DNA of 64,000 nt. Source: Albugo candida (lineage: Eukaryota). A program made the translations under genes and the position numbers. Under the pieces are notes generated by a model. That model saw only the letters and a program-made list of their open reading frames with translations, made no database searches and was not told the DNA's origin. The stretch is from contig JBDOQK010000018.1 of the NCBI GenBank assembly GCA_040437565.1, positions 310,001-374,000 of the forward strand, given 5' to 3'. The stretch's first letter is position 1. Every line of letters starts with the position of its first letter. Below, piece by piece: positions 78 to 56,322 of this stretch.

Positions 78-3000
78 AAGATCTTTGGTATACAACTACG
101 AAAATGTACCAGGAAAACAAGGAGAGAGAGGACCCTCGCGTCAGGAACGCCACGACCAAGGAGATGTCTCCAATAACCATTTTTCAGGCGGTATAAGCTC
201 CGAGAATGACGAGCACTGACCGCAACTTCCTGGTGGAATGGAAAAGAGTGAGAATTGAGCACGAAAGACTGGTGAAAAGAAACGATGGCGTCAATGTCGC
301 TTTAATAAGAAAACCTGTTGATCCCAGTGTGTTGGAATCGATGGTGGACTGGGTTTTTAATGTGGCTTCATAGGAGGATATCACGAAGGAGATGCTAATG
401 ACGTTTGTCAACAAACAGTGCGAGGATGGTGCTATGGATGGAAACGCTGGAGCAATACCTCAAGTATTTGCAAATTTGAAGATGGATTTGGACTTTCCGA
501 TACCTATTCTCGATGCTTGAAGATGTTTCAAAAATTTAAGCGAATGTCTAAACGAGCCGGTCTGTTGAGATATTTTGAAAAGAACCCTAAAGAATAGTGT
601 AAATTGCTCGTCAATGCGGTTATACCTATGGATCTTCAGTTTGAAATCCGTCAAATGATCAAGTTTGAAGTCGACGGCATGAGGTCAGATCCGAAGATGC
701 TATTTAAACAATTGACGAAAAAGGCAGCACAGTTCGATCATTCTTACTTGGCAAGAAACTTTCTCATCGCTGCAACTGGAGACCTCAAACCGATAGGTTG
801 TGATGCTGAGAAAGTGAAACGACCAGTAGAGAAGTCGGCAAACCAGAAAAGCAAAGATCACACACATGCAAAAAATGCCTTGGGTAAAAATAGCGGTGCA
901 ACTGTGCGACAAACAAGCCTAGATGAAAACCGAAGCAGGGATGCTGGAATTGTGGTCAAGATCACTGGCTAAGTGAATGTCCAAGCTTAAGTGGAGCTAA
1001 GAAGAAAGAAGTGGCTGCAAAAAAGCGGACCGAATATTCTGCGAAATGTTACCGCGTTTGAGTGACGCTGATGCAAAAAGTGGATGGCGTCGTTTGAAGT
1101 GGACAGTGGAAAAGTTACCACTATTCCTGCTTGACCAGATAACGGAGAAGATGATACCAAGAAATTACCGTATGGGAAATGTGGAAGTTTCCAAAGAGTG
1201 CTGCCAAAAGGTAAACATGCAGTTGTGTCTGCAGACTACAGTTGTCCGGTAAAGTTTTCGGATACGGATTGTTACATTGCTCAAGAGGCGTCGTGGGAAA
1301 TCCTTCTGGAAAACTTTTGTTAAATGCGGTTGGTATAGACGTCGAAGAGCAGCTGATTTCTCTAGCTGAGAGCCAGAGTCAATGTGACAGGGATGGTGGA
1401 CTTATGGAAGTTGAGGAGTGCTTGGCGGAGGACCGTAATACTGTAGAGGAACAAATAGCACAGGTGGTGACTGCCTATATTAAGACTGTCTGAGGGAAGA
1501 AAATTCGTGAGCCGTTGGTTGGTTTACTTTCGAATTATCAATGTTATTTTGCGTCGGAATTGTTTGGCTCTACACCTGCGAAGATTGAGCCGCTGTCGTT
1601 ACAGGTCGTGAAAGATGTACAAGTGGTTCGTGGATGATTTAGAACGTATGCTTCCTTGAAGGTTCAAGTGATCAGGAACATGTGGGCAAGCTTCTTTCAG
1701 CAGATTTCATTTATAAAAACACCAGTTCGAGGTGGAATTCTCCCTTTTTTCCCGTAAAAAAACCTGGAAAAACGCAATAAAGAATGACCATAGACTATCG
1801 TGAGGTGAACAGGATGATTCAACCGAAGTGTGGTTCAATGTTTTATTGGCGACAAAAACCGTTGTCTTGAAGAAAATGACCACGTTTGGAATTATGGACA
1901 TGTTCTATGGTTTCTGGAAAATCCGTTACACGTGGACAGTTAAGAGATACTTTCTTTTGCTACCGATTGCAAAGTCTACACNNNNNNNNNNNNNNNNNNN
2001 NNNNNNNNNNNNNNNNNNNNNNNNNNNNNNNNNNNNNNNNNNNNNNNNNNNNNNNNNNNNNNNNNNNNNNNNNNNNNNNNNGGAAAATCCGTTACACGTG
2101 GACAGTTAAGAGATACTTTCTTTTGCTACCGATTGCAAAGTCTACACACCTAATCGTGTACCTCAAGGCGCAGTTGATTCTGCTTTGCATTTTCAAGCAG
2201 TTATGATCAAGTGCTTTGATGTATTTTTGGATAAACCAGTTCTCATTTGGATGAACGACCTGTTGTTGTTTGCACGAGATGAGGTCAGTTCTCTCAGGTA
2301 TTAGAGGATGTTTTGAATATTGTTAAAAAAAAATACAAAGTGAAGATAAACCCGGGTAAAACCAGTCTGTTCTTGAAAGAAGCTCGTTTGTGTGGGAAGA
2401 TTTATGATGGAGATGGAGTAAAGCAAGAACCTGAGAAGTTACAAGGTCTGTGGTACTTGAGAAGTCCGAATACAGTCGATGAAATGCAACAGTTTCTTTG
2501 TGGAATGAACTGGTTGCGAGGGTGGTAACCAGCAGAATTTATTTACAAGAATCTCATTCGCATTTTTGCTCCGGACCGAAACACAAAGAAGAACTCAGTT
2601 GGAAGACTCCATCGGTGGAGCATGAAACTGGTGTCATTTGAATATGAGTCTTATCATATAGCACGAATTTTGAATGTATGGGCGGATACCCTTTCTCGCT
2701 GGCTAGAGGCACCATATGAGCTCAAGTCGATAAGAAGGTTGATCAAAAATCCAACTTCCGTCTCCGAACAGTACTCTACTTTGTCAAGGATTTCATTACA
2801 CTGTTTATCTGGTTCTTTAACTACCTTACTTATCCTATCATGAGCCCCTGACCGTGTGAATATCACTTAAGTCTGACTTCAAACCTAGGGAGGCAGATAT
2901 ATTCCAAACTTATTGCTTGGGTGGGCTCAAACCGCTGCCCACACTGCCGGGGACAGAACTAACGACCTCCGACAGGGGGTCCGTGCGCTCAAGTGCTTAA

Positions 3001-38729: not shown

Positions 38730-41700
38730 ATGATGCTGACAGATGCAATTGATGCTTTGCTTACAAAGTTGAGATGTACCTCGTTCCGAGTGAGTCCGGA
38801 TGACAGGAAATGGGCGGAATTGGTCCATAAATCCTTACAATCGCTACAAAATCCGATTGAAACTGAGATGCTACAGTTTTACATGGACACAAATTGCACA
38901 AGAAAGCGAAAATCAGACGAGCTGAAGGACTGGGAGGAATGGGATCGTGATGAATCGCATCATCTTACAATGGAAACCGTTCTAGATCCAGCCAAATGGA
39001 AAGACGTCGAAGCCATTGCGTTGGCACTATCGACAGGATTGACATCGTCTGAACGATTTCTTGAGGTCTTCAAAGTGCTTTGCTTACATTACTCAATGAA
39101 TAGCATCTCTATCTCTCGTCTGTACCGTTCTATGGTTCACACATTGAAAATTGCGAAGCGATGGTCTTGGCTACAAGAGCTCTCGCCATCTTTATTAGAT
39201 ATCACTTATCGTAAAATTCAACTTTTATATGCAGAAGCAAAGTTTGCAGAAGAAGAAGATGAAGTAATGTTCAATCTCATGGAAACAGTACTATTGTGGT
39301 GTGAACTACTGCTTGGATATCAGCACTCGTCTTCATTATTTTCAAGCCGAAAATATCAAGTTGTTGGACTTTTGACCCATCTGGAAAGCGTAAACGATAG
39401 CGTGCAGCTCATTAGTGTCAGAATGAAAGGTTTAGTGGACATAAAAGATTCGAATGCAATTGCTTGTCAGATTATAACAACGGTTATGGCACTTCTTATG
39501 TATCATCAGAGTTGTCCTCACGAGAATAAAAATATTTATGGGCTGATCATTGCACTTGGGTTTAGTGTGAATAGTGGAGCGATGAAACAGCCCAGAAGAG
39601 ACTTGATCAATGTGCCATCGGAAAAATTGACCAACCTTCTACGTCAAGCTGCGTGGATATTACAACCAGAGAAGCTAACGTATATTTTACCTTTTTTTGA
39701 AGGGAAGTGGGAAGCTGATTGGATTGGTGACAAAGGCTTTGGAACGATAACGAATTCCTCTTATCAAAAGCACTTTGGCACTCTCTACATGCGCTCAGTG
39801 GAGCGTTATCTCACATATCATGTAAACGCCACAATTCATGAAGCAAGCAATTTTACCGCTGGAAAGAGACCATTACAATTTCGTGGATATATCTTCCGAG
39901 GAAATGATTGTTTGGATGAAAACTCAAATGCCTCTTGGACTTTTGAAAGTCATTTTGGTTACGAAAAGGGTGATGCATCACTCAACCAGTGGAAGTGCTT
40001 GTCCTGTGCATTTGTCAATAAAGCCTCGGCTTTATTTTGCATAACTTGTGGAAAGCCGGCTCCAAGTAAAAGTGGTTCCATGACAAAAAGTAGTGCGCAA
40101 GATCCACTCTCCAATGCTGGTTTCTCGCGTGGAATTTTCTTTGGAAAGGACAAAGCTTTCCTACGAGTGCACTGGTCACGAGGTGAAGAAACCGGCGTTT
40201 GGTTAGCCCGCAAATGTGAGACAAAAAAGAACTTCAGTCTCGGTCAATTATATAATAGTTTGGCTGAGGTCTCCTACAGCGCTAATGTTTTTGCAAATGA
40301 ATGGAATCCAGACCATGTCGTCATGATCGAGAACTGCTCTCTATCATCAACACCCGACATGACAATCGAATTTTGGATGCTTCCCAAACAGGCTGATGGC
40401 TTCCAGGTCATATTGTCAAGTAGAGATAACGTTGTGTATCTCACACCCAGAAACAATCTCATTTGGCAGGTAAAAAAAATGCACACAATAGCCGCCAACT
40501 CGAATGAAACACAGCAAAATGGAATGTTTTTAGACGGAGGTACAATGAATGTCAAAAAATTCACTCATGTGTCTCTGACGATGGAGAAAAACGGTCATCG
40601 GCTGATAAGAATTGACAATACAATTGTAGCCGACTCACAAAATTCACATTCTTGTGATCTGAAGGTCGAGGATTCTCTCGAAGAAAAAGCATCAGATCAA
40701 AGGTCAGAAGCTTTGGAGAACTTGCTATTCCTAGGTGGAAAAGGTCATTTACACGGTGATTTCGCGTGGAAAATATCTGATTGTTTCGGTGGTGCAATAA
40801 GTGATCTCCGAATATGGTCGCTTTTTGCACCATTTACGGAACAGCTTCCTTCCTCCAAACTTTCATTGTATGGAAATGAACTCAATCTTTTGGGCTATTA
40901 CCCGCTGGTAGGAAACTTGTGTCGGGTCCTCATGGACAAATCGAACGCACAGAATCACGCTAGTTTGGCCTCATGGTGTAGAGAAAATCTGTCGCTAGAG
41001 ACAACGCGAGAAGTGGAAGGTAGTCCTCTGTGTCAGGTGCATCAGTATCCAGTGCAAGATGGTTTCGTGAAAGAAATTGGGTCCTTGCTGATTGCAGGAC
41101 ACTGTGAGCTGTGTGATGATGCAACCTTACAGATTCAGCGTGCAGGATTGGGCTCTTCCGTGTGGCTCAACGATCCCATCAATATAAGAGAAGGTTTTCA
41201 TGTTTCCTTAACAATTAGAGAGGAGTCTGGCAACACTACTTCACCTTCTCCGCTACTACTTGGAATATGTAACAATACAACCTGGGAATTGAGCTCATGC
41301 TTACGTGAAGCAAAAGTAATTTGTGACAATCTAGGTGATACATGCACGTTTGTGGAATCAAGCAACGCATTGATGACAACCACGTCTTTTTTCGTCGTCA
41401 TTCGACGTTCATCAACCTCAACTTCTGACAAATGTATTTGCGATATCGCCATTTTCGTATGGCGTGCTCAGAAGGCATTTCAGATTTGCCGGGCTTCTCA
41501 TATCTCCATCAATGCTTTTACGACCATGTCGATCGATTATAGTGCACCTGAACACGTGTTTAAAGTGAGCATCGAAGGAACAGGGACGATCATAGAGTCT
41601 GTAATTGATCTCGAGTCAGCACTCGTCATGACCCCGAAAGTCAATGATACCGACTCGGGAAGTGCGAGATTCGGGATTATATTCCCAAATTTGGAAAATA

Positions 41701-44700
41701 CGATCCTGCCGTCTGTGTATTTGACCGAATGGCTTGTGAATGCGTCAGTCCGTGACACGAACGACGCCATCCACAAAGATATCCCAATGGATGGACTCGC
41801 AGCAATCTATCCACACTTGGCTCGACAAAATAGCTCTACGCATGCGGGAAAAGAAGATCGAGATAACACTATACCGCCCCTGACACTATGCTCCCGTATC
41901 CGATTCGATGACCAAGCAATTCAACAAGAAACATATGGCTGTCAGACCTGTAGTCTCGATCATGGAACGCTTTGCCGCACCTGTGCGGTTATATGTCATA
42001 GTGGTCACGATCTGATCGCAACTGGTGCAAAGTCGATTTCATGTGCTTGTCAGTCACGGGGATCGGATCTTTGCCAATGCACAACGCAGACTCCCAAATT
42101 CACTGTTGATTTATTTCCAGCGCTTGAAAGCGGAACGGTAGCACATTTCTGGCGTTGCGATCAGTGCACTATCGTTAATGAGGCTAACGCGGTAGCATGC
42201 AAAGTTTGCGGAAGGAATACAACAATTTCGCCAGCTCGAGACACGGCAGACACTCCAATGCTAAACACCTCATCAGATGGAACATTGTGTGAGTCGGCAA
42301 AACATGCTTTCTCGGAATGGTCTTGCGTAGCGTGCACAATGCTTAACGAACCAAATGCGAAAAAATGTGCTGTTTGTGAGACAGTAAGACTCGGACACTC
42401 GCCCCACACAGGTGGCAAAGAGACGCAGTCACGAGGACAGCTGACTCCATTTCATACAGATAGCGCTGGTATAACGACGGAATCACCAAATGATCCTTCT
42501 GAGTCTCATTGGGATTGCCAGGCTTGCACGATGCAAAATCCGGCAAGTAATGTCTGTTGTTATATGTGTACAACTGCTCGCGAGAATTCCCAAACAGAAG
42601 CGAATCCTCCAAATTCCCCTGACACATCAACGTGTGAAGCGCTTCAGACTCCTTCAACACCTTCTCAAAACATTACGATCGAACGAAATACGATCATGGA
42701 GAGGAACGTTTCAGTCCTATCGACGCTGTACGCTGACATATTGCCAGATGAAGCACGAAAGAACGGCAATGACTGTGATTTTGTAGGCGAAAGCTTTTGG
42801 GAGACAACAATCGGCAACATGCTTCTCAACACAAGCGACCATCCATTTACGTCTCATTATGTCAACAGTAAATGTGAAGGAGATGGCTCTATCCACGGAA
42901 TCGCATACTGGGCACATTCGAGTGGGAGTTGGAGACTCCGAGGAGCGTATAGAAAAAAATCACAATCTCTCGGAAGCGCCATTGATATTCAGTGGAATTC
43001 AGAAGGGTCTCGATTTGAAGGGAAATTACATTGTGGGAATGCAGGCGAGACACTGAATTGCACAAAGTCTCCATACACTTGCGAATTCCGTGGGCTCAAA
43101 AAGGTGCTTTATGAATGCAAGGGCGAGAAGTCCGTGGATTCTGCCACAAAGTTTCAACCATTTTACTGTGGGCTTCTGAACATGCAAGACAGCTTGACAA
43201 ATATATGCTATCAAAACAGCTATTTACAGGCATTGTTCATGACAAAAGCATTTCGCCATTTGATCCTCGAGTACACAACAAACGACCGTGAACAAGCCAA
43301 CAAAGAAAGTGTTGAAAGTGTCAACAAATCGATCACAAGCATTCTGCAGGACATATTTGTAAAGCTCCTCTGCTCTCAGCGTCCGTTTATTGCAACACGA
43401 GAATTACAAAAGTGCATACCGTCAGAATTTAATAGCGGCCAGCAACAGGACACTTCAGATTTTGCTCATTATCTAATGGATGCAGTAAGCTCAGAGGTAG
43501 CTCATGACCACATATTCGCATCCAAACTAGCTCAGATATTCGGTGGATTACAAGCAACCATTGTCACATGCAAAAAGTGTGAGAAACATTCGATGCATGA
43601 AGAGTACTTCTGGGAACTCTTATTGAACATGGTGGATTTGAAGTATACTCCGATTGTGGATATTTGTGCTGTGAGTGGTGACGCATCCCATATCGAAACT
43701 CCTGAGGGCTATGAACGACTTAATTTTGATCTCAACCAAGGTCGGACAGGATCACCTCCTCATGTGTTTTTATGTGTCAAAAGAGCTCCCGAGAAGAAGC
43801 AGATCGAAAATGATGACTCTGTAGCAAATCTCCCAGTGACCGAGATTGTGCTCAGAACTTCCCTTACTATCGATGCTGCTCCATGCATGCCATCAGAATA
43901 TGAACGTGTGGGCGTCAATCTGAATGTTGGAGGATCCAGTTTGAACGATAACAAGCGCCAAATTTACATGTTTTTCAGAAGAGATCCTAATGGGTCCCCG
44001 ATCACTGACCTCCACGTACTGTATAGAAATGAGCCATTACCTGACGGATACAATCTTTTGGATACTGATCTCAATATGGGAGATGGCGATAATGTGTTTC
44101 TGTGCTACCGTTGTGACATGCCCATTACTGATATCAAACTGGTTGATTCGAACGTCTCTGGCTATAGTCTTAGTCCCGAATCGCTTGTACTGAAAGGACC
44201 AACGACCAATTCTCAGCATGCTGGTGAGCAGTACCTTGCTTACAAAGTAGGTGGCGGGACGGATGTCTGCGTGACAGATTTGACCGTTGTATCTGAATCA
44301 CGATCCAAGGAGCTCAAACAGCGTGGATGGGAGTGTATTGGTGTGCTTGGAAATACGCGGGGAGCTGTAACTCGAAATGATGCGATGGAGGACAATGACA
44401 CTGGATTGGATACAAGAGCTGATGATAGTTCTGAAGAATACAACTCGGCAGCCATAGATCATGTGATGGTGCTAAGAGGCCATGGGAATCCAATCGTTGC
44501 AATTGATGTCTATCGAGCACCTCGACAAGTACCAAAGTTCAGTGACTATGAGATCCAATCTTTATATACGCATTTGGATGCAACGAAGAACGCCAGTAAC
44601 GATACGAGCTCGAGAGTGGAGAGAATTCTGGCCACTTTGGAAGGAAACTGGAAAGCCACAGAGAAATCCGATCAGTCACATCGTTTCATGGTAATCGATC

Positions 44701-47063
44701 CATTTTCTACAGTCGACATCAATTTGGATGAAGCGTATCTTGTTCAGGGTCACTGGAACGATAAAGACGAGATTTTCGCTGTTGCAATACCAATCAGAAA
44801 GCCGATGGTCACGTGGGGTCCGACGAAGGAGAAACTGAACAACGCACACGAGCCAGATTCTGGGGATATCGGTCCTGCCCAAGCAGAAGACACAATCACT
44901 TCTTTCCGACTGACAGGTTATGTGCGAGATGCATCGAGATCAAGCGAGCCACACGTGATGCAGTTTGATTTGACCACACCGCAGCATGAAGACCTCGATT
45001 CTTTTTGTACAGTGCTGGGGAATATGGGCGATGGTCGTGGAATGCTGCTACCTTTTTCAGCCATACAACGATCGAAAAAACCATTGCTGAAGCGAGTTGC
45101 AACAAGCCTCGTGCTCTTACGAGGGGATGAAAGTATCCCAGAGAACGTCGACGTCGTTCGGACCACTGTGTCTGGAAATACTGGGAATTTACTTGCACAA
45201 TCCAAGTCTCCTCACAGTCTCTACGTTGGCGTCACTCGTGATCCATCGAGCAAGCATTATGTCGACGACGTGTGTGTGATATATGGGGAAGTTGATGCGG
45301 TCCCTGAAAGGTGTATATGCGTAGAGACAACACCTGCTGGACACTCGGCAAACCTCAACGACGGAACGTCTGGAGTCACCATGTTTATATGTTATCGACT
45401 AGCTTCGATCGACGAACAGACAGAAGAAAGTCAGACCGTGATGGATGTGGCTCTCGTCTGCTCTTCTCAGGGTCATAGCGATGCCATTCCGCCAAATTTC
45501 TACAAGGTGACACAAACCCCGTTAGGCCTTAGTGCGAATCTGAATGAGGGAACCCAAGGTGCCATGATGTTTTTGTGCGTTCAGAAGCGACTTCTGCATG
45601 AGGTTCCGAGGATTATACATCATCCGATGAATGGAAGATACGAGATCTTATCATTTGGAAATGGACCGCCTTTGAAAAAGTATCTCAATCTCTGCGTCAC
45701 ACGAATGTACACGCGAGCGTATCCGATAAAAGGCGGAGTTGGACCAACTTTTCACGGAAGAGCATCTATGCATACGGTCCGTGGGATTCTCTGTGTTGAT
45801 GATGCAAAGGGAGCATCTAACGAAAAGATTATTGGCTTATGGACACCAAACTGCCAAGGACAATTCATGGCCTCTCTTCCGGTATTTCCATTCGAGTTGA
45901 CGCTGAAAGGAAGTGATGCAGAGATGGAGGGATGGTACAGCTCACCAGATGGATCCATAAAACCTAATGTGCTCACCATCAAGACCCCTGGTAGCAAAAC
46001 AAGCAATGCAATTGGAAGCGGACGTGCCTGGTGTCTTCGAAAGGATTCTTATGTACAGATAGCCTTCAAGAAGGACTATGGTAGTGAATGGAAAGACGGC
46101 AAGTTGATCTCATCTGAACGTGTCTGGCGACACGACATTCCATCGATGCTGAAACGATTCACCGCGACCCGCACCATGGGAGGCCTCGACGCCTTATCAT
46201 GCTCCAGATGCCAGGAGAAAACGGAATCTCGCACGCACACAGTGATCGTGTCTCCCCCCGACCATCTCGTACTGACTCTCAAACGCATGTATTATGACGT
46301 CAAGCAACAAAAGACCCAAAAATGTCTTCGTGATGTTGCATTCCCGGCATTCCTGACACTTCCAGATGTATCTTTTAACGATGAGGAAATCATCCACGCA
46401 AGCAAGGAGAGGAACCAAATTCATAAGTCTCATGATCGGGACTATGGGCTTTACGCTGTGTTGATTCATAGCGGCCTGACTGCTAATTCTGGTCATTACT
46501 ATAGCTTCTGTCGGGTGAGCGACGGGAATGAGCTTCATCTTGACGACTCAGAAGCGAATCCTTGGATCAAATTCAATGACACAAATGTGGAGTTTTCGAG
46601 TATGAAGGAGATCCATCGAACGACCAGATCGGTGTCGGACTCTGTGTATTTACTGTTGTACAAGAAGCTCAATTACAAAGTGGAATTTGAAATTGAAGGC
46701 GCTGAAGGAGATGAGACACTTTTATTAGCTAAAGCGATGGCGCTTTCTATGTCTGCTGCAACTGATTCTGTCGAAATCGTCTGCTCTGGAGGTGTAGATG
46801 TGGATGCGCGCGGTTTGGATAGGAATTTAGTCGCTAAGGTACGCATTGTTGCCGCTTTCATCGCGCAAAAAACTGAATTTTGTGCACAGGTTGAGCAAGA
46901 GAATACGAGATTTTTACACCATCTGGAGAAATTCGCGTGTAGCGAGGAGTATGTAAAGGATTTGCACGCAATGAGCCTTGCTACATGCGGATTGCCCCAC
47001 AATATCTCGTGGCTGCAAGACAAGCTAAAGTTCGATCGACAAAGTTCGGACGAAAAGCTCTAA
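38730..47063 (+). CDS. Giant ubiquitin-specific protease (peptidase C19) with RanBP2 zinc fingers, LamG/ConA-like region, UBR-type zinc finger, MABP repeats and UIM
   Basis: 2777-aa ORF. Cys box GLLN...NICYQNSYLQAL; GQQQDTSDF; His box YAVLIHSG...SGHYYSF; WIKFND. Four W-x-C-x2-C-x3-N-x6-C-x2-C fingers. Possible in-frame 51-bp intron 46839-46889. Confidence 0.93.
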   Translation: MMLTDAIDALLTKLRCTSFRVSPDDRKWAELVHKSLQSLQNPIETEMLQFYMDTNCTRKRKSDELKDWEEWDRDESHHLTMETVLDPAKWKDVEAIALALSTGLTSSERFLEVFKVLCLHYSMNSISISRLYRSMVHTLKIAKRWSWLQELSPSLLDITYRKIQLLYAEAKFAEEEDEVMFNLMETVLLWCELLLGYQHSSSLFSSRKYQVVGLLTHLESVNDSVQLISVRMKGLVDIKDSNAIACQIITTVMALLMYHQSCPHENKNIYGLIIALGFSVNSGAMKQPRRDLINVPSEKLTNLLRQAAWILQPEKLTYILPFFEGKWEADWIGDKGFGTITNSSYQKHFGTLYMRSVERYLTYHVNATIHEASNFTAGKRPLQFRGYIFRGNDCLDENSNASWTFESHFGYEKGDASLNQWKCLSCAFVNKASALFCITCGKPAPSKSGSMTKSSAQDPLSNAGFSRGIFFGKDKAFLRVHWSRGEETGVWLARKCETKKNFSLGQLYNSLAEVSYSANVFANEWNPDHVVMIENCSLSSTPDMTIEFWMLPKQADGFQVILSSRDNVVYLTPRNNLIWQVKKMHTIAANSNETQQNGMFLDGGTMNVKKFTHVSLTMEKNGHRLIRIDNTIVADSQNSHSCDLKVEDSLEEKASDQRSEALENLLFLGGKGHLHGDFAWKISDCFGGAISDLRIWSLFAPFTEQLPSSKLSLYGNELNLLGYYPLVGNLCRVLMDKSNAQNHASLASWCRENLSLETTREVEGSPLCQVHQYPVQDGFVKEIGSLLIAGHCELCDDATLQIQRAGLGSSVWLNDPINIREGFHVSLTIREESGNTTSPSPLLLGICNNTTWELSSCLREAKVICDNLGDTCTFVESSNALMTTTSFFVVIRRSSTSTSDKCICDIAIFVWRAQKAFQICRASHISINAFTTMSIDYSAPEHVFKVSIEGTGTIIESVIDLESALVMTPKVNDTDSGSARFGIIFPNLENTILPSVYLTEWLVNASVRDTNDAIHKDIPMDGLAAIYPHLARQNSSTHAGKEDRDNTIPPLTLCSRIRFDDQAIQQETYGCQTCSLDHGTLCRTCAVICHSGHDLIATGAKSISCACQSRGSDLCQCTTQTPKFTVDLFPALESGTVAHFWRCDQCTIVNEANAVACKVCGRNTTISPARDTADTPMLNTSSDGTLCESAKHAFSEWSCVACTMLNEPNAKKCAVCETVRLGHSPHTGGKETQSRGQLTPFHTDSAGITTESPNDPSESHWDCQACTMQNPASNVCCYMCTTARENSQTEANPPNSPDTSTCEALQTPSTPSQNITIERNTIMERNVSVLSTLYADILPDEARKNGNDCDFVGESFWETTIGNMLLNTSDHPFTSHYVNSKCEGDGSIHGIAYWAHSSGSWRLRGAYRKKSQSLGSAIDIQWNSEGSRFEGKLHCGNAGETLNCTKSPYTCEFRGLKKVLYECKGEKSVDSATKFQPFYCGLLNMQDSLTNICYQNSYLQALFMTKAFRHLILEYTTNDREQANKESVESVNKSITSILQDIFVKLLCSQRPFIATRELQKCIPSEFNSGQQQDTSDFAHYLMDAVSSEVAHDHIFASKLAQIFGGLQATIVTCKKCEKHSMHEEYFWELLLNMVDLKYTPIVDICAVSGDASHIETPEGYERLNFDLNQGRTGSPPHVFLCVKRAPEKKQIENDDSVANLPVTEIVLRTSLTIDAAPCMPSEYERVGVNLNVGGSSLNDNKRQIYMFFRRDPNGSPITDLHVLYRNEPLPDGYNLLDTDLNMGDGDNVFLCYRCDMPITDIKLVDSNVSGYSLSPESLVLKGPTTNSQHAGEQYLAYKVGGGTDVCVTDLTVVSESRSKELKQRGWECIGVLGNTRGAVTRNDAMEDNDTGLDTRADDSSEEYNSAAIDHVMVLRGHGNPIVAIDVYRAPRQVPKFSDYEIQSLYTHLDATKNASNDTSSRVERILATLEGNWKATEKSDQSHRFMVIDPFSTVDINLDEAYLVQGHWNDKDEIFAVAIPIRKPMVTWGPTKEKLNNAHEPDSGDIGPAQAEDTITSFRLTGYVRDASRSSEPHVMQFDLTTPQHEDLDSFCTVLGNMGDGRGMLLPFSAIQRSKKPLLKRVATSLVLLRGDESIPENVDVVRTTVSGNTGNLLAQSKSPHSLYVGVTRDPSSKHYVDDVCVIYGEVDAVPERCICVETTPAGHSANLNDGTSGVTMFICYRLASIDEQTEESQTVMDVALVCSSQGHSDAIPPNFYKVTQTPLGLSANLNEGTQGAMMFLCVQKRLLHEVPRIIHHPMNGRYEILSFGNGPPLKKYLNLCVTRMYTRAYPIKGGVGPTFHGRASMHTVRGILCVDDAKGASNEKIIGLWTPNCQGQFMASLPVFPFELTLKGSDAEMEGWYSSPDGSIKPNVLTIKTPGSKTSNAIGSGRAWCLRKDSYVQIAFKKDYGSEWKDGKLISSERVWRHDIPSMLKRFTATRTMGGLDALSCSRCQEKTESRTHTVIVSPPDHLVLTLKRMYYDVKQQKTQKCLRDVAFPAFLTLPDVSFNDEEIIHASKERNQIHKSHDRDYGLYAVLIHSGLTANSGHYYSFCRVSDGNELHLDDSEANPWIKFNDTNVEFSSMKEIHRTTRSVSDSVYLLLYKKLNYKVEFEIEGAEGDETLLLAKAMALSMSAATDSVEIVCSGGVDVDARGLDRNLVAKVRIVAAFIAQKTEFCAQVEQENTRFLHHLEKFACSEEYVKDLHAMSLATCGLPHNISWLQDKLKFDRQSSDEKL

Positions 47064-49307
47064 TGGCTGGACAAGATCGATCATACCAAAAAGATGCGCC
47101 ATCTAAATCATGGAAGAAGTCGCAGTCGCGGTCGAAAGGCAAGCATAAACGTGTAGATGCGCACAGCGATATAGTCGATAGAAGAAAACGTGCTCGAGAG
47201 CACATGAAAGCGAGACAACAGGCAAATGCCAATAGGTTGCATGGAGAAGAAGTAAAAGCAAGAAAGCAGAAACTATGTCGTGAAGTAGCTGCGAAAATTG
47301 TATGGCGCAAGTTTGAGCGGAAAAATGAAGCGTTTGAAACGTTTTATAAGCAGTTGATGCAGAAAATGTATTTTAAATGTGACAATTTTGATGCAATATG
47401 GACGAGTTTCATTGACTGCATGAAGAAATCTCTCTGCGTCCATTTTCGCTTCAATCTCAATCAACCTGACCTCGCACATCAAACTCTCCACGTATTCCAA
47501 CATGAAATTATTCCAAAATACGTCGCTGAGTCACATCGACAGAGAGTTTCGGAGGATGTCAGTGGAGAGGAACGAACGATTCAGATCGCTCCTTTGGCTT
47601 GGGCTTCTTTTGCCAATGAAAATCTATGGAAAGTGTCAGTCGATGCGAAACAATTCCGCAAAGAGGAAAGCCTTATGGAAATTTGCGCTTTTGTACATGA
47701 AAACACAAAATTCGGTTTGCTTATTCGCCATGATCCGACAATAAGCCTTCTTCCCGAATTGCTTTCTATACGACCATCGGATCGAGTCTTGGATCTATGT
47801 GGTGGGGCAGGAGAGCATGGTATTCGAGCGCCTGTGCTCGCAGAGTGCTTAAGAGCTCCTGGTTCTCAAGGAGTACTTGTTGTGAACGAAACAAGTGTTG
47901 CGTCTGGTGCGATTGCACTCAGGAATCTAAGCCGCACGTTGACTTGTAGCGCCAATGTGATTGTCACTACCCATCGAATCCTCGACTATCCTCAAATGGA
48001 AAACACGCATGATGGATTTGATCGTGTCTTATGTATGGTGCCCTGTTCCGGCGACGGAATGATTCGGAGTTGTCCGGAGAAATGGCGTACATGGACCGTA
48101 TCAAAGGGAAATGAGAATCATCAGAACCAAATCAATCAACTTACCAAGGCAATTTCATTGCTAAAGGTGTGTGTTTGGTGCTTGACGCAATCGAAAAGCA
48201 TCACCATCTTTCTCTGTTCTTCAGGTTGGAGGAACTGTATTATATTGCACCCGCTCTATGAACCCAATCGAAAACGAAGCTGTTGTTACTGCAGTATTAG
48301 ACAATGGTTTATGCAAAGTTGAGGTCAGCTCACATTCTTCAAAAAGTCTCAATCATTATACCTTACTCACTGCTTCTTGTCTGTAGCTTATCGATATTCA
48401 CCGCAATATGGACGAGAAATTCCCGGCCTTCTTAAAGCATCCTGGTGTAGAATCTTGGGCAGTGTTTGGCGAGGACATGCAGATCTTGCCTTCTTGGAAA
48501 GATTTGAATGACAAAGACAAAAGCAGACTCAACCTCACCATGTGGCCTAAAGCAAATATGAAATTGGATCGATGCGTTCGAGTACTTCCGCACGAAAACG
48601 ACACTCACGCTTTTTTTTTTGCGGCTTTAAGGAAATGCACAGCGGAAGCCATTCCCACTGTCTCTGCAGCTCCAAAAGCTGACAAGCCCCAATATTCCGA
48701 TCGACGAAAACATATATCTTCCAGCAAGCACTTTGCACCATTAAAGCGTCTGAATTGGGAAAAAATGATCGAGTTTTACGGACTGGAATTACCACCACAT
48801 TGGAATCAAGATAGCTTCCTACAGAAACGACAATCCATTCAGAACGGGCAGTGCTCTGTTCATCTGGTATCGCATCAAGCAGTCAGCATACTAACCTCGA
48901 GGCATATTGGTAAATTAGCGGTTCAACGAGCTGGCGTCGAGGCTTTCCATTTGAGTGTGTCAACGAGCCGAGCCGAGATAACGGATGCAGGCGCTCAAAC
49001 GCTCACATCAGCTCTCACAAAGCAGATTCTTGGATTACAACTCGGTACATTTGAGAAATTACTGGAGGGAAAAGAATTGTGGAATCATCAGCTTCCAGCC
49101 CTCACACTCGAACACGCGGAGGCACTTGAAGATGGACCATTTGTGGCCGCCATTGAAACACCACGCGATCCAAACGAGAACATAATTGGTCTCATCACTT
49201 GTGTCAAGCATCAGAATGGGATCTCACTGGCAGCATCACCGGATCTCAATTATAATCGATCGCGTCTTCTATTTCTACTTTCTCGATTCAACAAAGCCAA
49301 AAAATAG
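47063..49307 (+). CDS. NOL1/NOP2/Sun (NSUN2/Trm4-like) RNA m5C methyltransferase-fold protein, catalytically deviant (3 exons)
   Basis: RVLDLC, FDRVLCMVPCSGDG, LLKVGGTVLYCTRSMNPIENEAVV, RVLPHENDTHAFFFAALRK. Introns near 48167-48224 and 48324-48386. Confidence 0.88.
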
Positions 49308-49382
49308 CAAAAATTTGGTCTCATTATTTGCACAATTTTGTATAAAGAGTGTTTTACACTTTTCTTTTGCTCAAGAAATAGC

Positions 49383-51843
49383 TCAAGGTTTTGTGCTTTG
49401 CGGCGGTGGACTCAGCAAACAACTCAAAACACTGCGAGTAAATCGTGTTGGCCGATGATAGCGGAGCGTGTAATACAAATCTTCAAACAACGCCACCACA
49501 CGCGGAAAAGCAAAACTACTAGAGCCCACATTGCTATCAGGATGAATCGGGTCTTCAATAACCAATGCTGGTTGTGATCCAGCAACTTTAAATTCGGCCA
49601 GACGATAAATGTATCCTCCATCTCGAATGGAGAGTCCGTTTTGGCGGTAATCAAACGTTAGCCCAAAGAATTCGAGGAATTCATAAATGTATTGGCCAAG
49701 CTCATTTGCATCTTCTTTTCCGGCTTGCTTTCGCTCCAACGATACGGATGCCTCGGCCTGCTTCTCACTCGATTGACTTCGACAACTGCAGGATGAATCC
49801 TCTGTATCGGCACTACTGCTTGTGACACTGATTGCGTCAGTGCTGACGTCAATATCACGTAAAGCTCGTCGAAAATCAGCGGGTGAGATGGAGACGTGAG
49901 GGTCAGACTTGGGCTTTGCTGGAGCAGATACGATCGAAGCATAGCTCAAATTTTTCTGATTCTTGCAATTGTGATCAGCAGCTGAACTCTTGGCTATCGT
50001 TGCTTTACCAGCGGCGACAGCGGCATAGCTGAATGGCGTAGATGCAGTCTTCTCCTTGCATTTCAACCCGGATTCGTCATTTCTTTCATTGGGCGTACTA
50101 TTGACAGACACTTTTTCTTTCTTTGGAGCGGCGAGGACGACACTTGCGTATGATTTGTCATCAGTGATTCCACTTGCATTCTGTTCGATCCGAAAAGAGC
50201 TTTTCCTTGAGCTTTTTTGAGTGCGTTTGGGAATGTCGGAGAGATTTCGTCGTGACCCACGCTCAGTATCTTGCGAATGTGCTGATTGATCGATGTTCGT
50301 ATCCCTTACGTGCTGTGTTCGGTGGTCTGTGAACAGTTCTTTCCAACTAGAGCGTGTCGACACTTTGGTTTTTATGTCGTCAACTGCAGTGTGCACGGAA
50401 GGGATCCCACCTGAAGCGTAGACCGCTGCAGCCTCGAAGCAAGCTCGACCGTGTCGTCGAAGTAAGGAGAAGTGGATCAGCATCAAGACGATCGAATATG
50501 AACTCAATCCACCAGTATACGCATCATTCAGGTCCCGTTCACGCAGCAGCTGCTTCATGATGATCGCCGCTGGGTAAAGCTCTGGTAGTTCATTGACATA
50601 CCGACTCACCAGATCACTACAGAATCAGAAAAAAATGAAAAGTTCGCAATCGATTCACAGCCCAAGTAGCACGAACCGTGCAAGTAAGCCGCTGTGAGTG
50701 GATGATGTCTCAAAGGAGATGTCAATGGGAATAGAAACATCTTTACTGACGAGTTTGATGACTGGCACCTTGGCCGTCTCAAGCACCACGATAGAGGCGA
50801 CCCAGTCTTGTTGACTCAATACATCTGCCAATTTCCCGAGATTTGCCGCTGTTGTTCTCAAGTCACAATTCTCCAAAACATTCTAAACCAAAATGTCAGA
50901 TACTAAAACACACATATATAGCCGCATCCACGTACGAGAATAACCAAATCGACATCGCTTGTTGGCAGCCAAAGTCCCGTAGAGTACGAGCCGAATGTTT
51001 CAATAGTCGAATCAGACCATAAATCCTGCACACTTGTAGTGACATTTTCAATAATTTTCGCGATGTGAATTTTCATAGAATCGACAGTTTTTTTGGTCTG
51101 TGACGCAATTTGTACAATTTCCGAATGCAAACGTTTGACCATCGTATTGTATCTCGGGCTTTTGCTGGATGAACAGGTCGCTTCTTTGTACTTGAAGGGT
51201 TTTAAGGACGTACACTCACTTGGAGATGTATTTGCTTTTCGTGAGAGTTTGACTTTGTGAAGAGAAGATAATCCTAAAGAGCGCTCGAGATGCCGACTTA
51301 CGAGTCGATTCAGCTTTTCAGTTCGTTTCTCTGTGATCAATCGAGTCTGTGATTTTGATAGCGTTTTTCGTTCTTTCGAGTCGAATTTCGCATTCAAAAG
51401 CACTAGAGACATACATAAGCGAAATGGAGTCTGATGAATAAATTCTTACCAGCCTCTTGTCTGCCGAGTACGCTGTCTGCGGTCGCTTTGTCCCTTCGAT
51501 TCAAATGCATTTCTAACGACTCACAGGTACCCGATGACGTCATCCTTTGGGTTTCAACGGTATTATCGTTCTGTGTGGCTTTGTTGCTCATATGTGCTGA
51601 GAGGCTTTTTGTGAACAACTTTTGCATTTGACCACAATGCGTTCTTTTTTTATTTTCCTTTGGTGTGATTGGTATACGCTTTGATAGCTCTCTGCGCGGT
51701 GAATGAGCAGGGAATAACGGAGCATTTGACGCAATTACGGACATTATATTCTCAAAGTCTGCAGAAAATAGCTTTTTATACGTTGTGGTGGGTACTTGAG
51801 ACTTGAAAACATTTATGGGTGGACGATAGGCGCATACATACAC
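49383..51843 (-). CDS. Non-canonical poly(A) polymerase, Trf4/PAPD5 (TENT4)-like; start uncertain; multi-exon
   Basis: FGSYSTGLWLPTSDVDLVI, AKVPVIKL, IDISF, LNDAYTGGLSSY, and PAP-associated LVIEDP...NVGSSSF. Confidence 0.9.
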
Positions 51844-52396: not shown

Positions 52397-55300
52397 ATGG
52401 TATCTTCATCTTCATCAGCGGCTCTAAGCGTACGATCGCGAGGAATACGTGCTAGCTCCTGTACGCATCGTTCTCACGACGCACCTGTAATAACATCACA
52501 AAAAATGTATGACCTCCTTCAGGACGTCGCGTTTCTATCTTCCTGCGTTGCTTTATTGCATTATTACGTCGGGTTCACGGGACTATTTGTATTTATTTTG
52601 TACGGAACCGCTGTCGAATTCGGATTTTCTATCACACAATCACTAAAATTCATTCAAAAGCGATTTGCATTTGTGTCGGAAATTCACAGTTCTATAAAGC
52701 GTTTTAGTCCCTCTTTCTTACAGATACTTTGCGCCGCGTTGAGAATAAAAACATCGCCAAATAATGCGTCAGGCAATTTGGAGTCTGAAGTATCTGATTC
52801 CGAGTCGTTTACTCCTTCCGATTGTGCCTCGTCAATCGCTGAAACCGATGGGGAAGCTGAGGTCCATCAATTTGATGCATTGGAAGCCGTCAAGTCTTCC
52901 AGGAGTAAAAGTGCACCGGCAGTCTGCTCGAATTCGGCTACTTCTCCGCTTACGGTTCACAATATCTCTCATTTGAAGGAGCATCTCGATCAGTCAATGG
53001 CTCCGGGCCACGCGATTTTGGATAGTGCAAAATGCTCTCATTGTGCATGCAGTGACACCTTTGTTCGAATCAATTCACGGGAGCCGGTACACTTTGAAAA
53101 TGAATTCTTTGACGGGAACGCATACCTTTTTGTGCGTACAAAGCCTGAGAGTCCATTATGGGCTCATCTTTTCCAAGGAAGACGACGAATGTTTTGGATT
53201 CAGGTGCAAGGAAGATTCAAACAAGAGCCTCGAGGTGTTGTGTATCTGGGTGGAGAGCTTCCATGGCGGATCTCATTGGGCATTTTCACAAAGAGTGTCG
53301 CTCTTATGGTGCTCGGTATCATTAAGAAGCTCGTAGGGAAGATCCATTACAGCTTTGGAGACTCCAAGAACCACGAACTGCCTCATATCGCATTTCCATT
53401 GTTCCAAACCGTCGATCAGTTTACATGCACGCCAAAAGGTCAACTAGCACCTCAACTCGGCGTCCAAGTCATTCAGGAGACCGAGCAGGCTCAAAAGCAT
53501 CGAAAAAGCGTTCCAGTTGGGCAGGAAACATTCAAAGTGGGACCGACCTACACTTTTCACTTTCATACGATGTACGTCGATTTACATCATTGGAAGACAG
53601 TCAACATTCCTGGAATCAATGATATGAAGCTGTCAACCTTTTTCAATTCTTCGCCGTTGCGTTTGGTCGCGTACGATGTGGAATTTGGCTCGAATGGAAT
53701 TCAAAGTGGAGGAGGAAAGCATCTCAAATGCAATAAGCGATACTTATTCTGCTTTGAAATGCACTTTGATAGCTCCAAAAACACGGATGTTGCCCGGGCG
53801 TATAGTGATGAGGAAGAAAGCGATTCGGACTCTGTTGTATCAGGCAAGATTGCAAGTGAGTCCTCGAGCAAGAGTCATCTAGATCCACAGGATGCAGCAT
53901 CCATACGGCATGTAATTAGCGCTGAATCAGCACAAGCGACGATCAGCTGCTCTTCGGATTCGTCGATGCTGACATCATCTCCCAAAGCGATTGCACCAAA
54001 ACACCGCATCGAGAAGACGACAAGCTCTCAGACACAGCAAGATCACGCGATCCAACACGGTGCTGCGGTTTGGAGGCGACGTGAGCTCGCACTGAAATGG
54101 AGATCGACCTCGGTCGCATACTTATTTTGGATGGAGGAAGTCGACTTATCGTGCAAAGTCCGGAGGGTGTACTATGTATTTTCGATCAAAGAAAAAGGCG
54201 GGCGCGAGAACTGCTTTTGTATTATGAGTGTCGACACTTTGCGTCTTTTGTTATTCCGAAATCAAAATCAGCGGTATTGGTCACTTACCCCTCCGACAAC
54301 TCGTCTCCACAGTCGTTCTCACTCAATAAGTTATGGCACAATCACAGAGGAAGCCAAGCAAGTTGGACAATACTTGGAGTTGGTCTCTACATCATCTCAT
54401 GACGCAGTCATTGGGCTATCTGATGACGAGAAAGAAGCAGACGATCGAGACACTACGGATCAGCCGAGAACACAAGCGCTTGTACTTGCAGAATTGGCAC
54501 TTGAGGCTTCTTTGTATGAGCTTTCCATCCAGCGACCGCGATTACAAGACACTCAATGGAAAGAAAACATGTCCCCTGCTTCGATAGGGGTCGATTTTGA
54601 AAAACGTGATCGAGCTACGATGAATATTGCGCATGAGGGAATTGTGTATCGTTTCTACGCCGACGAATTTCTTCGACAAGAGGTTTTAGTGGTGACACGT
54701 AAGCGGCTTTTATTCTTTCGAGCTTTCTCTCATATTGCGGACAGCATCGTACGATGTCGCGATGTCATCGCTGTAGAAGGCTGCTTATTTCCATTCATGA
54801 AGGAATCGGCCGCTCAACTCAAACAATCTCTTGCCGATACAGAGAAGTGTGAGCTGCAGGAGTGCGAATCAGCTGGCACGAGTGATACTTTGGATCAGCC
54901 ATTTGGCTATTGCTTCAAAATTGGCACTTTGGCTGAAGAACATCTCATTTGTGTTGGTACAATTGATGCTAGAGATCACTGGATTCGGGTCTTATTGCAA
55001 TACTGCACTCCAGAGGCTTTTTCTCGACAGGATGCATGCACAATTGTGCCAATTTGCTTTGCATCACGAGCTCCGTTGAAACCACAAAGTCGAATTATTC
55101 TCAACTCACGATCACTGTACCCCAGTGGTGCTACTGTGAGCTTTCCCAAAGACGTCACAGCTCACATAGCGTCCGCTCTACGTGCAGCATTAGAGATCCA
55201 TCAATGTGCATTTGAGACCGCAAGGACCTCACCATCATCCACGTGCCTCCTATACGTGTCAAAACCGTTAGAGTTCCTCAAAGCTGCGAGCTCTCTTCGA

Positions 55301-56322
55301 CAGATCGATTTGGTCGCTTTCCATAAAAGCTCAAATCATGAAGAGAAGCTGTCATTTTATCTCAATTTGTATCATTTGATACTAGCTCATGGAATGTTAT
55401 CTCATGGATTCCCGCAAGACAAACAGCAGTGGAATCGATTTTTCTCTGAGATGGGTTATATGGTCGGCATCCAGCGCGTGAGCCTGTCATTAGCGGAAAT
55501 CGAGCATGTGATTCTCCGTGCCCGCATGAAAATGGCTAGCATNNNNNNNNNNNNNNNNNNNNNNNNNNNNNNNNNNNNNNNNNNNNNNNNNNNNNNNNNN
55601 NNNNNNNNNNNNNNNNNNNNNNNNNNNNNNNNNNNNNNNNNNCATTTTATCTCAATTTGTATCATTTGATACTAGCTCATGGAATGTTATCTCATGGATT
55701 CCCGCAAGACAAACAGCAGTGGAATCGATTTTTCTCTGAGATGGGTTATATGGTCGGCATCCAGCGCGTGAGCCTGTCATTAGCGGAAATCGAGCATGTG
55801 ATTCTCCGTGCCCGCATGAAAATGGCTAGCATCCCCTATGTGAACGTGGAAGATGTGGTCTGCCTCGCATCGGATCGACTCAAGCCATTCGCTCTTGTAC
55901 ATCCAGACTTTCGTATCAGCTTTGCACTCGTCATGAACCGATCCGACTCGAGCAATCTTTGCATCTTTGAAGCTGAGAAAATCCACGAACAACTCAATCA
56001 AGTTGCAAAAGAATATCTTCAACGTCATGTCGTCGTGGAATCGGTAAAGAAGCTCATCATATTGCCTCGGGTGTGTGAGTGGTACGCCGTCGATTACACA
56101 AGTCAAAGTATCAACGATATGGCTGGGAATGGAAAGAGTGCACGAAGAGAGCAGAAGAGGGAAATAAGTCTGTATTGCGCCCGCAAATTGATGGGATTTC
56201 TCCATCCCGCTACCTTGCAAGAACTACAAGATCTTTTGAAGGACGATAGTTGCATTCACACGAGATATGGACATTTCAAATACAAACCCAAGTCAATGCT
56301 GAAGGAGGAAGTAGAATTCTGA
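52397..56322 (+). CDS. DUF1769 plus PH-like plus DUF547 protein (N gap with overlap duplication near 55353-55832)
   Basis: DUF1769-like FENEFFDG...FQGRRRMFWIQVQGRFK...YTFHFHTMYVD; DUF547-like EKLSFYLNLYH...SLAEIEHVILR...DFRISFAL. Confidence 0.8.

Follow-up and report, generated by a model that had tools for sequence, protein, structure and literature searches.

Why should a deubiquitinase carry 833 residues inside its own catalytic domain, and what might such an enzyme do? The question is raised by a gene of Albugo candida that lies in a 64,000-nucleotide stretch of contig JBDOQK010000018.1 (GCA_040437565.1, positions 310,001 to 374,000), hereafter called the window, where it occupies one open frame of 2777 codons with no N at 38730..47063. 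All coordinates below are window positions, and all features of this gene lie on the plus strand. Our results place the product in the USP35/38 family and show that MABP prisms and beta-barrels are inserted into its catalytic domain. As to function, we give an even chance to the reading that the protein is a cytosolic, single-copy deubiquitinase of this family which docks on endomembranes and trims ubiquitinated cargo.

The main layout was already published in 2010, when PITG_02561 of Phytophthora infestans was described in one sentence as having two MABP domains inserted into a deubiquitinase, together with N-terminal ubiquitin-binding zinc ribbons, and a membrane-adaptor role was proposed for it (PMC2881412; de Souza and Aravind, 2010). 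This is the same functional inference as ours, and the idea of an endosomal or membrane deubiquitinase is plausible by analogy. The only P. infestans T30-4 protein with the layout that we retrieved (EEY64041.1/XP_002907477.1; 34% identity over nearly the whole length) is very probably PITG_02561, judged by its fit to the description rather than by a confirmed locus tag. Like PITG_02561, the Albugo protein has MABP domains inside the deubiquitinase and N-terminal zinc ribbons, but the 2010 paper counted six ribbons where we count four NZF fingers and one UBR finger in Albugo, and its text does not mention USP35/38, a third prism, barrels, lectin folds or a UIM. One NCBI ortholog record already names RanBP2, UBR, USP and MABP. 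The first-pass annotation of this DNA had treated the architecture as potentially new; the layout itself is not, while no experimental study and no follow-up of the 2010 layout were found in the literature searched, to which subscription papers do not belong, and a text search of PMC3670738 found no passage on this protein. As far as our searches reach, the new elements are the family, the nested third prism, the wider distribution and the loss of the UBR pocket; some of these details may already be in the 2010 supplement.

Catalytic domain and family

The catalytic domain is split into two halves. The N-terminal half (43161..43634) carries the catalytic Cys1493 (43206-43208), the first CxxC of the finger zinc site and the motif FWELLLNMV (43608-43634), and the C-terminal half (46134..46679) carries the second CxxC, His2589 (46494-46496) and Asn2616/Asp2617 (46575-46580), with IPSMLKRF (46137-46160) and CSRC (46200-46211) as landmarks. 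A Pfam scan of the open frame returned UCH in two stretches (136.7 bits, E 1.4e-39), zf-RanBP four times and LamG weakly. The first-pass claim of a USP core split around some 830 residues is thus borne out, and all motifs cited in the first-pass annotation were recovered at or close to the positions it gave. A search with residues 1470-2660 retrieved 60 proteins. The insert region is present in 54 of them, whose named sources are 15 oomycete genera, and the other 6 are remote USPs. Our alignment comprises the query and 38 of the 54 (39 sequences; 16 fused, partial or near-duplicate rows were omitted). Cys1493, His2589, Asn2616 and Asp2617 are kept in 39/39 sequences, and the four finger cysteines, two on either side of the insert, in 39, 39, 38 and 39 of 39. 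These intact catalytic residues suggest ubiquitin isopeptidase activity.

In an AlphaFold2 model of residues 1471-2657 (predicted local distance difference test, pLDDT, 75.8; predicted template modelling score 0.58), the two halves are folded into one thumb-palm-fingers USP domain. The modelled halves superpose jointly on USP35 (5TXK; Z 22.8, root-mean-square deviation (rmsd) 2.5, 291/317 residues), with USP34 as the next-best USP fold match (Z 21.6). USP35 5TXK is also the top match in a profile search (E 1e-42; next USP E 1e-29). The protein belongs with the USP35/38 family, which is part of what our analysis adds to the 2010 description. Its insertion starts at the same place as that of USP35, it appears to have a helical N-terminal domain like that of USP35 and USP38, and its closest solved catalytic domain is that of USP35. 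The insert begins about 5 residues past the F/W-x-L-x-L strand that precedes USP35's own insertion, which is reported at 603-760 (PMC13193824). However, USP35 and USP38 have about 1000 residues, an insertion of about 160 residues and none of the added domains, whereas the Albugo insert has 833. USP35 is reported to require a C-terminal dimerisation domain (PMC13193824); the C-terminal tail of the Albugo protein is weakly conserved (0.12 in the 39-sequence alignment).

The putative USP35/38-type helical domain comprises residues 86-310 (38985..39659). In a second model, of residues 1-1127 (pLDDT 65.8), these helices match the USP38 N-terminal domain 4RXX with Z 13.2, rmsd 3.8 and 178 residues aligned, which is borderline for a helical domain. 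Pfam Usp38-like_N gave no match in the Albugo protein and stayed below the cut-off in 9/28 homologs. A hidden Markov model of the region matches insert-less USP38-like proteins, and among insert-less neighbours with such a match (14 of 28 scanned), Usp38-like_N is found in 14/14, in 13 of them over the cut-off. These lines of evidence agree with one another, although each is weak.

A FastTree phylogeny was built from 72 proteins and 309 columns (27 MABP-USPs, 39 insert-less proteins and 6 outgroups). With rows picked by similarity and a small outgroup, MABP-USPs and insert-less proteins split from the six outgroups with support 1.0. The inner order is weak (support 0.74 for the MABP-USPs and 0.168 for the insert-less group), and sister and nested positions are not separated. 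The Cys box (43179-43208) is longer by four residues in 19 of the 27 MABP-USPs and shows the usual spacing in 7; one was not parsed. The extra residues are common to the oomycete and thraustochytrid members and absent in the 7 more distant MABP-USPs.

Architecture of the insert

The insert is 699-860 residues long in 39/39 sequences and contains about nine repeats, corresponding to three prisms, together with two beta-barrels. The first-pass annotation had seen two clusters of MABP repeats. Both are present where it placed them, but they are only part of the content. Their MABP identity holds: the fold search gave Z of about 17 against solved MABP structures for prisms A and C, and sequence matches agree.

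Prism A (residues 1637-1796, 43638..44117) has three repeats and matches the Mpf2Ba1 prism in sequence (E 1e-10) and 8B6V in fold (Z 16.9, rmsd 2.1, 139 aligned). Its conservation is 0.50, compared with 0.46 for the USP N-half, and the P-x-G-Y signature of the second strand reads TPEGY, LPDGY and variants in this prism and is weaker in prisms B and C. Prism C (residues 2120-2290, 45087..45599), also of three repeats, matches MVB12B 3TOW (Z 17.1, rmsd 2.2, 143/152 aligned); Pfam PF10240 is over the cut-off here in 14/18 orthologs and below it in Albugo. A third, probable prism, B (residues 1797-1950, 44118..44564), is degenerate yet has invariant surface residues. It aligns with prism A by hhalign at 96% with an agreeing repeat pattern, and its third repeat appears to lack the last strand. 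None of the fold-search matches covers prism B, the UBR finger or barrel 1, and the Foldseek lists for the models are filled by USPs and lectins and uninformative on prisms and barrels.

The last strand of prism B probably returns after an excursion of about 490 residues, made up of barrels 3 and 4 flanking prism C. The candidate is the first strand of a return segment (46044..46133, mean identity 0.70): when 2117 windows were scored with a last-strand repeat profile, the one at residue 2441 came out highest outside the training set (11.7 vs next 3.6). The profile has its limits, as in leave-one-out it placed r5, one of the eight true repeats, at rank 275, and the first strand of the third repeat of prism B scored only 1.7. 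By hhalign the short return strand stays below 4% against single repeats, and it is found by the pooled profile only. The insert is thus probably nested, with a third prism enclosing two avidin-like barrels and another prism, and this is an addition to the 2010 description.

The prisms share the three-repeat beta-prism fold of the MVB12A/B MABP domain and of MACPF-linked prisms (Mpf2Ba1, Plu-MACPF; rmsd 2.1-2.8), but in Albugo three of them, mostly with a net acidic charge, are built into an enzyme. Pfam found no UMA or MACPF domain in the Albugo protein or the homologs scanned. A further MABP/MVB12-like stretch lies elsewhere in the genome (G000:C3:470423-470656, minus strand; PF10240, 25 bits). 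For the position of the insert there is a parallel in USP4/11/15, where a UBL domain is inserted between the two CxxC motifs, i.e., at the fingers (PMC5372499). A folded domain between the CxxC pairs is common to both, although the UBL insert is far shorter and these USPs are of a different family.

Barrels 3 (44607..45065) and 4 (45603..46043), identified by model fold and hhalign, are avidin-like and eight-stranded. Barrel 4 matches streptavidin 6QSY (Z 9.8, rmsd 3.0, 105 aligned) and Cap15 7N34 (Z 11.2, rmsd 3.3, 99 aligned). The streptavidin and Cap15 match ranges in the model (488-969 and 531-856) suggest that barrels 3 and 4 exchange strands. A related barrel 2 (42783..43115) stands directly before the USP domain and aligns with barrels 3 and 4 by hhalign at 92% and 95% (controls <1%); among themselves, barrels 2-4 give 77-95%. 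Barrel 1 (residues 321-500, 39690..40229), into which NZF1 is inserted, is a probable avidin-like barrel of low confidence, with hhalign of 78% to barrel 2 and a model pLDDT mostly of 30-70. The nearest Atlas neighbours are unnamed bacterial clusters, at 0.89 for barrel 2, all of whose matches are below 0.9, and at 0.92 for barrel 4, and serve as a lead only.

Ubiquitin-binding motifs

The four RanBP2 fingers of the first-pass annotation are all matched by Pfam zf-RanBP, one far upstream (NZF1, 39990..40049) and three after the UBR finger (NZF2-4, 42150-42209, 42318-42377 and 42510-42569). Ubiquitin-binding NZF fingers follow a T-F/hydrophobic rule. Across the sequences, most NZF1, NZF3 and NZF4 have T-M and NZF2 has T-V; in NZF3 and NZF4, T-M mostly follows the second Cys, and a hydrophobic residue lies in the second CxxC. 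The UIM-like helix (46704..46754) was recognised by conservation, with Glu and Ala in 39/39 and Ser in 38/39 sequences. A UIM is a helix of the pattern acidic-hydrophobic-x-x-Ala-hydrophobic-x-x-Ser, which this conserved motif fits, as the first-pass annotation had proposed. Pfam UIM is over the cut-off in the distant homologs P0054 and P0055, in P0054 at the same motif, and gives no match in Albugo. As judged from these sequence patterns, NZF3, NZF4 and the UIM appear to fit ubiquitin binding best. In the distant proteins P0052, P0053 and P0055, UBA-like domains take the place of the oomycete UBR finger and NZF2-4, a hint that ubiquitin binding is the task of this region.

Proposed function

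The endomembrane reading would join these parts as follows. The insert would leave the fingers between the two CxxC pairs, carrying three MABP prisms and two barrels, and the prisms would most likely dock the enzyme on endomembranes, by analogy with MVB12B. NZF3, NZF4 and the UIM may then hold ubiquitinated cargo or chains by avidity, while the USP domain would strip ubiquitin from membrane cargo or trafficking machinery, resulting in cargo rescue or ubiquitin recycling. The UBR finger, the lectin-like sandwiches and the barrels may act as protein-interaction or structural modules. The analogy draws on the MABP domain of MVB12B, which is reported to bind phosphatidic acid and to target late endosomes (bioRxiv 10.1101/2020.11.25.398396). 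A hydropathy scan of the Albugo protein, which is not a signal-peptide predictor, showed neither a stretch resembling a signal peptide nor one that could span a membrane.

Several observations weigh against this role. A net acidic charge is found for prisms B and C in 39/39 sequences, and a net basic one for prism A in 5/39 only, unlike a simple acidic-lipid binder; net charge is a crude measure, however, and several Arg of prism A are invariant. At the NZF motif positions, Albugo has A-F in NZF1 and T-I/T-V in NZF2. Four extra residues lengthen the Cys box in 19/27 of the family members examined. Additionally, the reported substrates of human USP35 are mitotic and mitochondrial (PMC13193824), and family membership therefore lends an endosomal role no support.

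The prisms may not bind lipid at all. The protein could be an active USP35/38-like deubiquitinase in which the prisms and barrels bind proteins or serve as a scaffold, for substrate choice or finger regulation, an alternative that we consider possible and clearly less probable than docking. Besides the mostly acidic charge, the insert stands at the ubiquitin-holding fingers, where USP4/11/15 carry their UBL (PMC5372499), and prism B keeps invariant surface residues despite being degenerate. However, the MVB12B MABP domain binds lipid (bioRxiv 10.1101/2020.11.25.398396), and there is a close fit of prisms A and C to MVB12B and to the MACPF-linked prisms.

UBR finger

The first-pass annotation had recognised a UBR-like finger and suggested that the enzyme might edit N-degrons; only the finger stands up. 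The zinc finger at 41889..42080 is of the UBR4-7 subfamily: it matches the UBR4 UBR box (E 3.5e-5), keeps the zinc-ligand pattern and has the subfamily-2 cysteine in 35/35 oomycete-type sequences. Pfam zf-UBR has no match in the Albugo protein and matches in 2/18 orthologs below the cut-off, and the model of the region is of low confidence. UBR matches from a profile scan in P0054 and P0055 are training artefacts, as no motif is present in either.

If the box bound destabilising N-termini, the USP domain could rescue N-degron substrates, and the UBR4-like finger with its conserved cysteine would fit such an editor. However, the N-degron pocket residues are absent. The equivalents of UBR4 F1671 (Ala/Pro), F1713 (Ala/Ser/Val/Thr) and D1715 (Ala/Gly/Ser) are small in 35/35 sequences, and each of the three UBR4 residues, the Asp that binds the amino group and both Phe, is found in 0/35. 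In UBR4, D1715 binds the amino group, and F1671A and F1713A abolish binding (PMC10687169). UBR3, 6 and 7 are known to carry a UBR box without binding N-degrons (PMC5606531), and no UBR box is present in more distant MABP-USPs. N-degron editing is therefore unlikely, and we give it only a slight chance. Compared with the UBR boxes of UBR4 and FBXO11, the Albugo box has the same zinc-ligand pattern of the UBR4-7 subfamily, but it is found in a deubiquitinase and its pocket residues are replaced.

Lectin-like domains

Between barrel 1 and the UBR finger, a legume-lectin-like beta-sandwich (residues 497-1007, 40218..41750) holds an inserted LamG/pentraxin-like domain (residues 517-775, 40278..41054). 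The sandwich matches 5ZBT over the range 497..1007 (Z 17.3, rmsd 3.2, 194 aligned) and the inner domain matches 4DQA (Z 18.2, rmsd 3.1, 191 aligned). A LamG-like region had been noticed in the first pass, and it is confirmed by this modelled fold and by Pfam Laminin_G_3 (E 8e-7 for the piece scanned by itself). The two lectin-fold domains have no mutual sequence relation (hhalign 0.5%).

These folds raise the possibility of a cytosolic glycan-sensing deubiquitinase, in which the lectin folds, and perhaps the barrels, would detect sugars on damaged endomembranes or dislocated glycoproteins while MABP holds the membrane. The fold matches at Z 17-18 speak for it, as does another P. infestans MABP protein that is fused to a peptide-N-glycanase-type domain (PMC2881412), and an OAA-lectin cluster among the Atlas neighbours of the barrels (0.86) is a weak lead. 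On the other side, lectin-type folds often bind protein, and sequence identity to lectins is 7-16% in the fold-search alignments. Legume lectins conserve a sugar-binding Asp-Gly. In our alignment, the Asp-Gly before the relevant strand is not conserved (columns 832-845 are variable). Glycan sensing is thus improbable in our view.

Distribution

The cassette is wider than oomycetes, as it is found in the thraustochytrid Mucochytrium quahogii and the rhizarian Paulinella micropora (10 proteins looked up). A full HMMER scan listed 150 proteins, 136 of them new, of which 19 have MABP between both USP halves; a search of shorter proteins gave 13 matches, the named ones all oomycete pieces. The earlier term 'lineage-specific' is therefore too narrow. 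The UBR finger is seen in the oomycete-type group only. In two distant MABP-USPs, P0141 and P0143, the NZF and UBR fingers are absent and a Kelch propeller lies upstream.

The source of one ortholog, P0030, labels it an 'RxLR effector candidate', and LamG folds are often extracellular, which would suit a secreted, host-directed effector. However, the first 100 residues of P0030 contain no RxLR, RxLR occurs at chance level in 4/39 sequences, and a hydrophobic N-terminal stretch is present in 5/39, the Albugo protein not among them. The gene is single copy, and the layout also occurs in the thraustochytrid and Paulinella. We find the effector reading hardly credible.

Gene structure

The closest database protein is an Albugo candida model with 99% identity across 2739 residues, and the USP gene gave a single match in its own genome. 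Contigs from four public runs were placed on window 37000-49600. Three of the four runs show GT..AG joints and were taken as RNA-derived from these joints, as none is on record as RNA. Since the spliced contigs span 38692-46836 with no joint, the insert is exonic. An in-frame 51-nucleotide GT..AG intron lies 3' of the UIM at 46839..46889; it is spliced out in 3/4 runs, retained in the unspliced run, and coincides with an alignment gap in 34-35 of 38 homologs. The open frame reported at first pass is thus real but reads through this intron, and the protein therefore has about 2760 residues.

Three public A. candida models (P0002, P0076 and P0077) join eIF3g (window 37350-38677), the USP and an RsmB/NSUN-type methyltransferase (46985-49307) into about 3730 residues; the USP and methyltransferase open frames share 46985-47063. 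Apart from this annotation, the evidence is against such a fusion being the true 3730-residue product. In spliced contigs from two studies, the eIF3g piece ends at 38671-38677 and the USP piece begins at 38679-38692, while the unspliced run continues, which is a weak hint. The 46958-to-47000 junction that the fused models require is absent among the observed joints, and the A. laibachii ortholog and other orthologs are stand-alone proteins. A genuine fusion is highly improbable, and even jointly, secretion and fusion retain only a very small probability. The Thraustotheca model P0044, with GNAT and PhzF domains on the ortholog N-terminus, is probably another gene-model fusion.

The N-run at 38486-38585 resembles a false gap: 38445 is joined to 38586 in all four runs, and about 40 bases are duplicated on either side. 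Other genes in the window include a 1090-residue open frame with Duc1, PH and DUF547 domains (52397-55669, plus strand) and, on the minus strand, an IQ plus C2 protein (36051-37217), a Cid1-type poly(A) polymerase piece (49383-50624) and an RRP6-like exonuclease with HRDC (59200-61086).

Significance

A broader and improbable reading is that an old USP35/38 branch, spread across stramenopiles, alveolates and Rhizaria, is a stand-alone membrane-surveillance deubiquitinase, in which a nested prism-barrel-prism arm would read a lipid, the cytosolic pair of lectin folds would read exposed glycans and a repurposed UBR box would bind a ligand other than an N-degron. If true, damage sensing and ubiquitin removal would be combined in one polypeptide, and the unnamed avidin-like barrel family would have its first function. 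Whatever the ligands, our results describe a relative of USP35/38 whose fingers accommodate a nested insert of 700-860 residues and which carries a UBR box outside an E3 ligase with a lost degron pocket, and they flag fused public gene models. Collectively, this is a conserved single-copy enzyme of plant and fish pathogens, and its Cys box differs from the aligned human USP35 sequence, which could matter for selective inhibitors.

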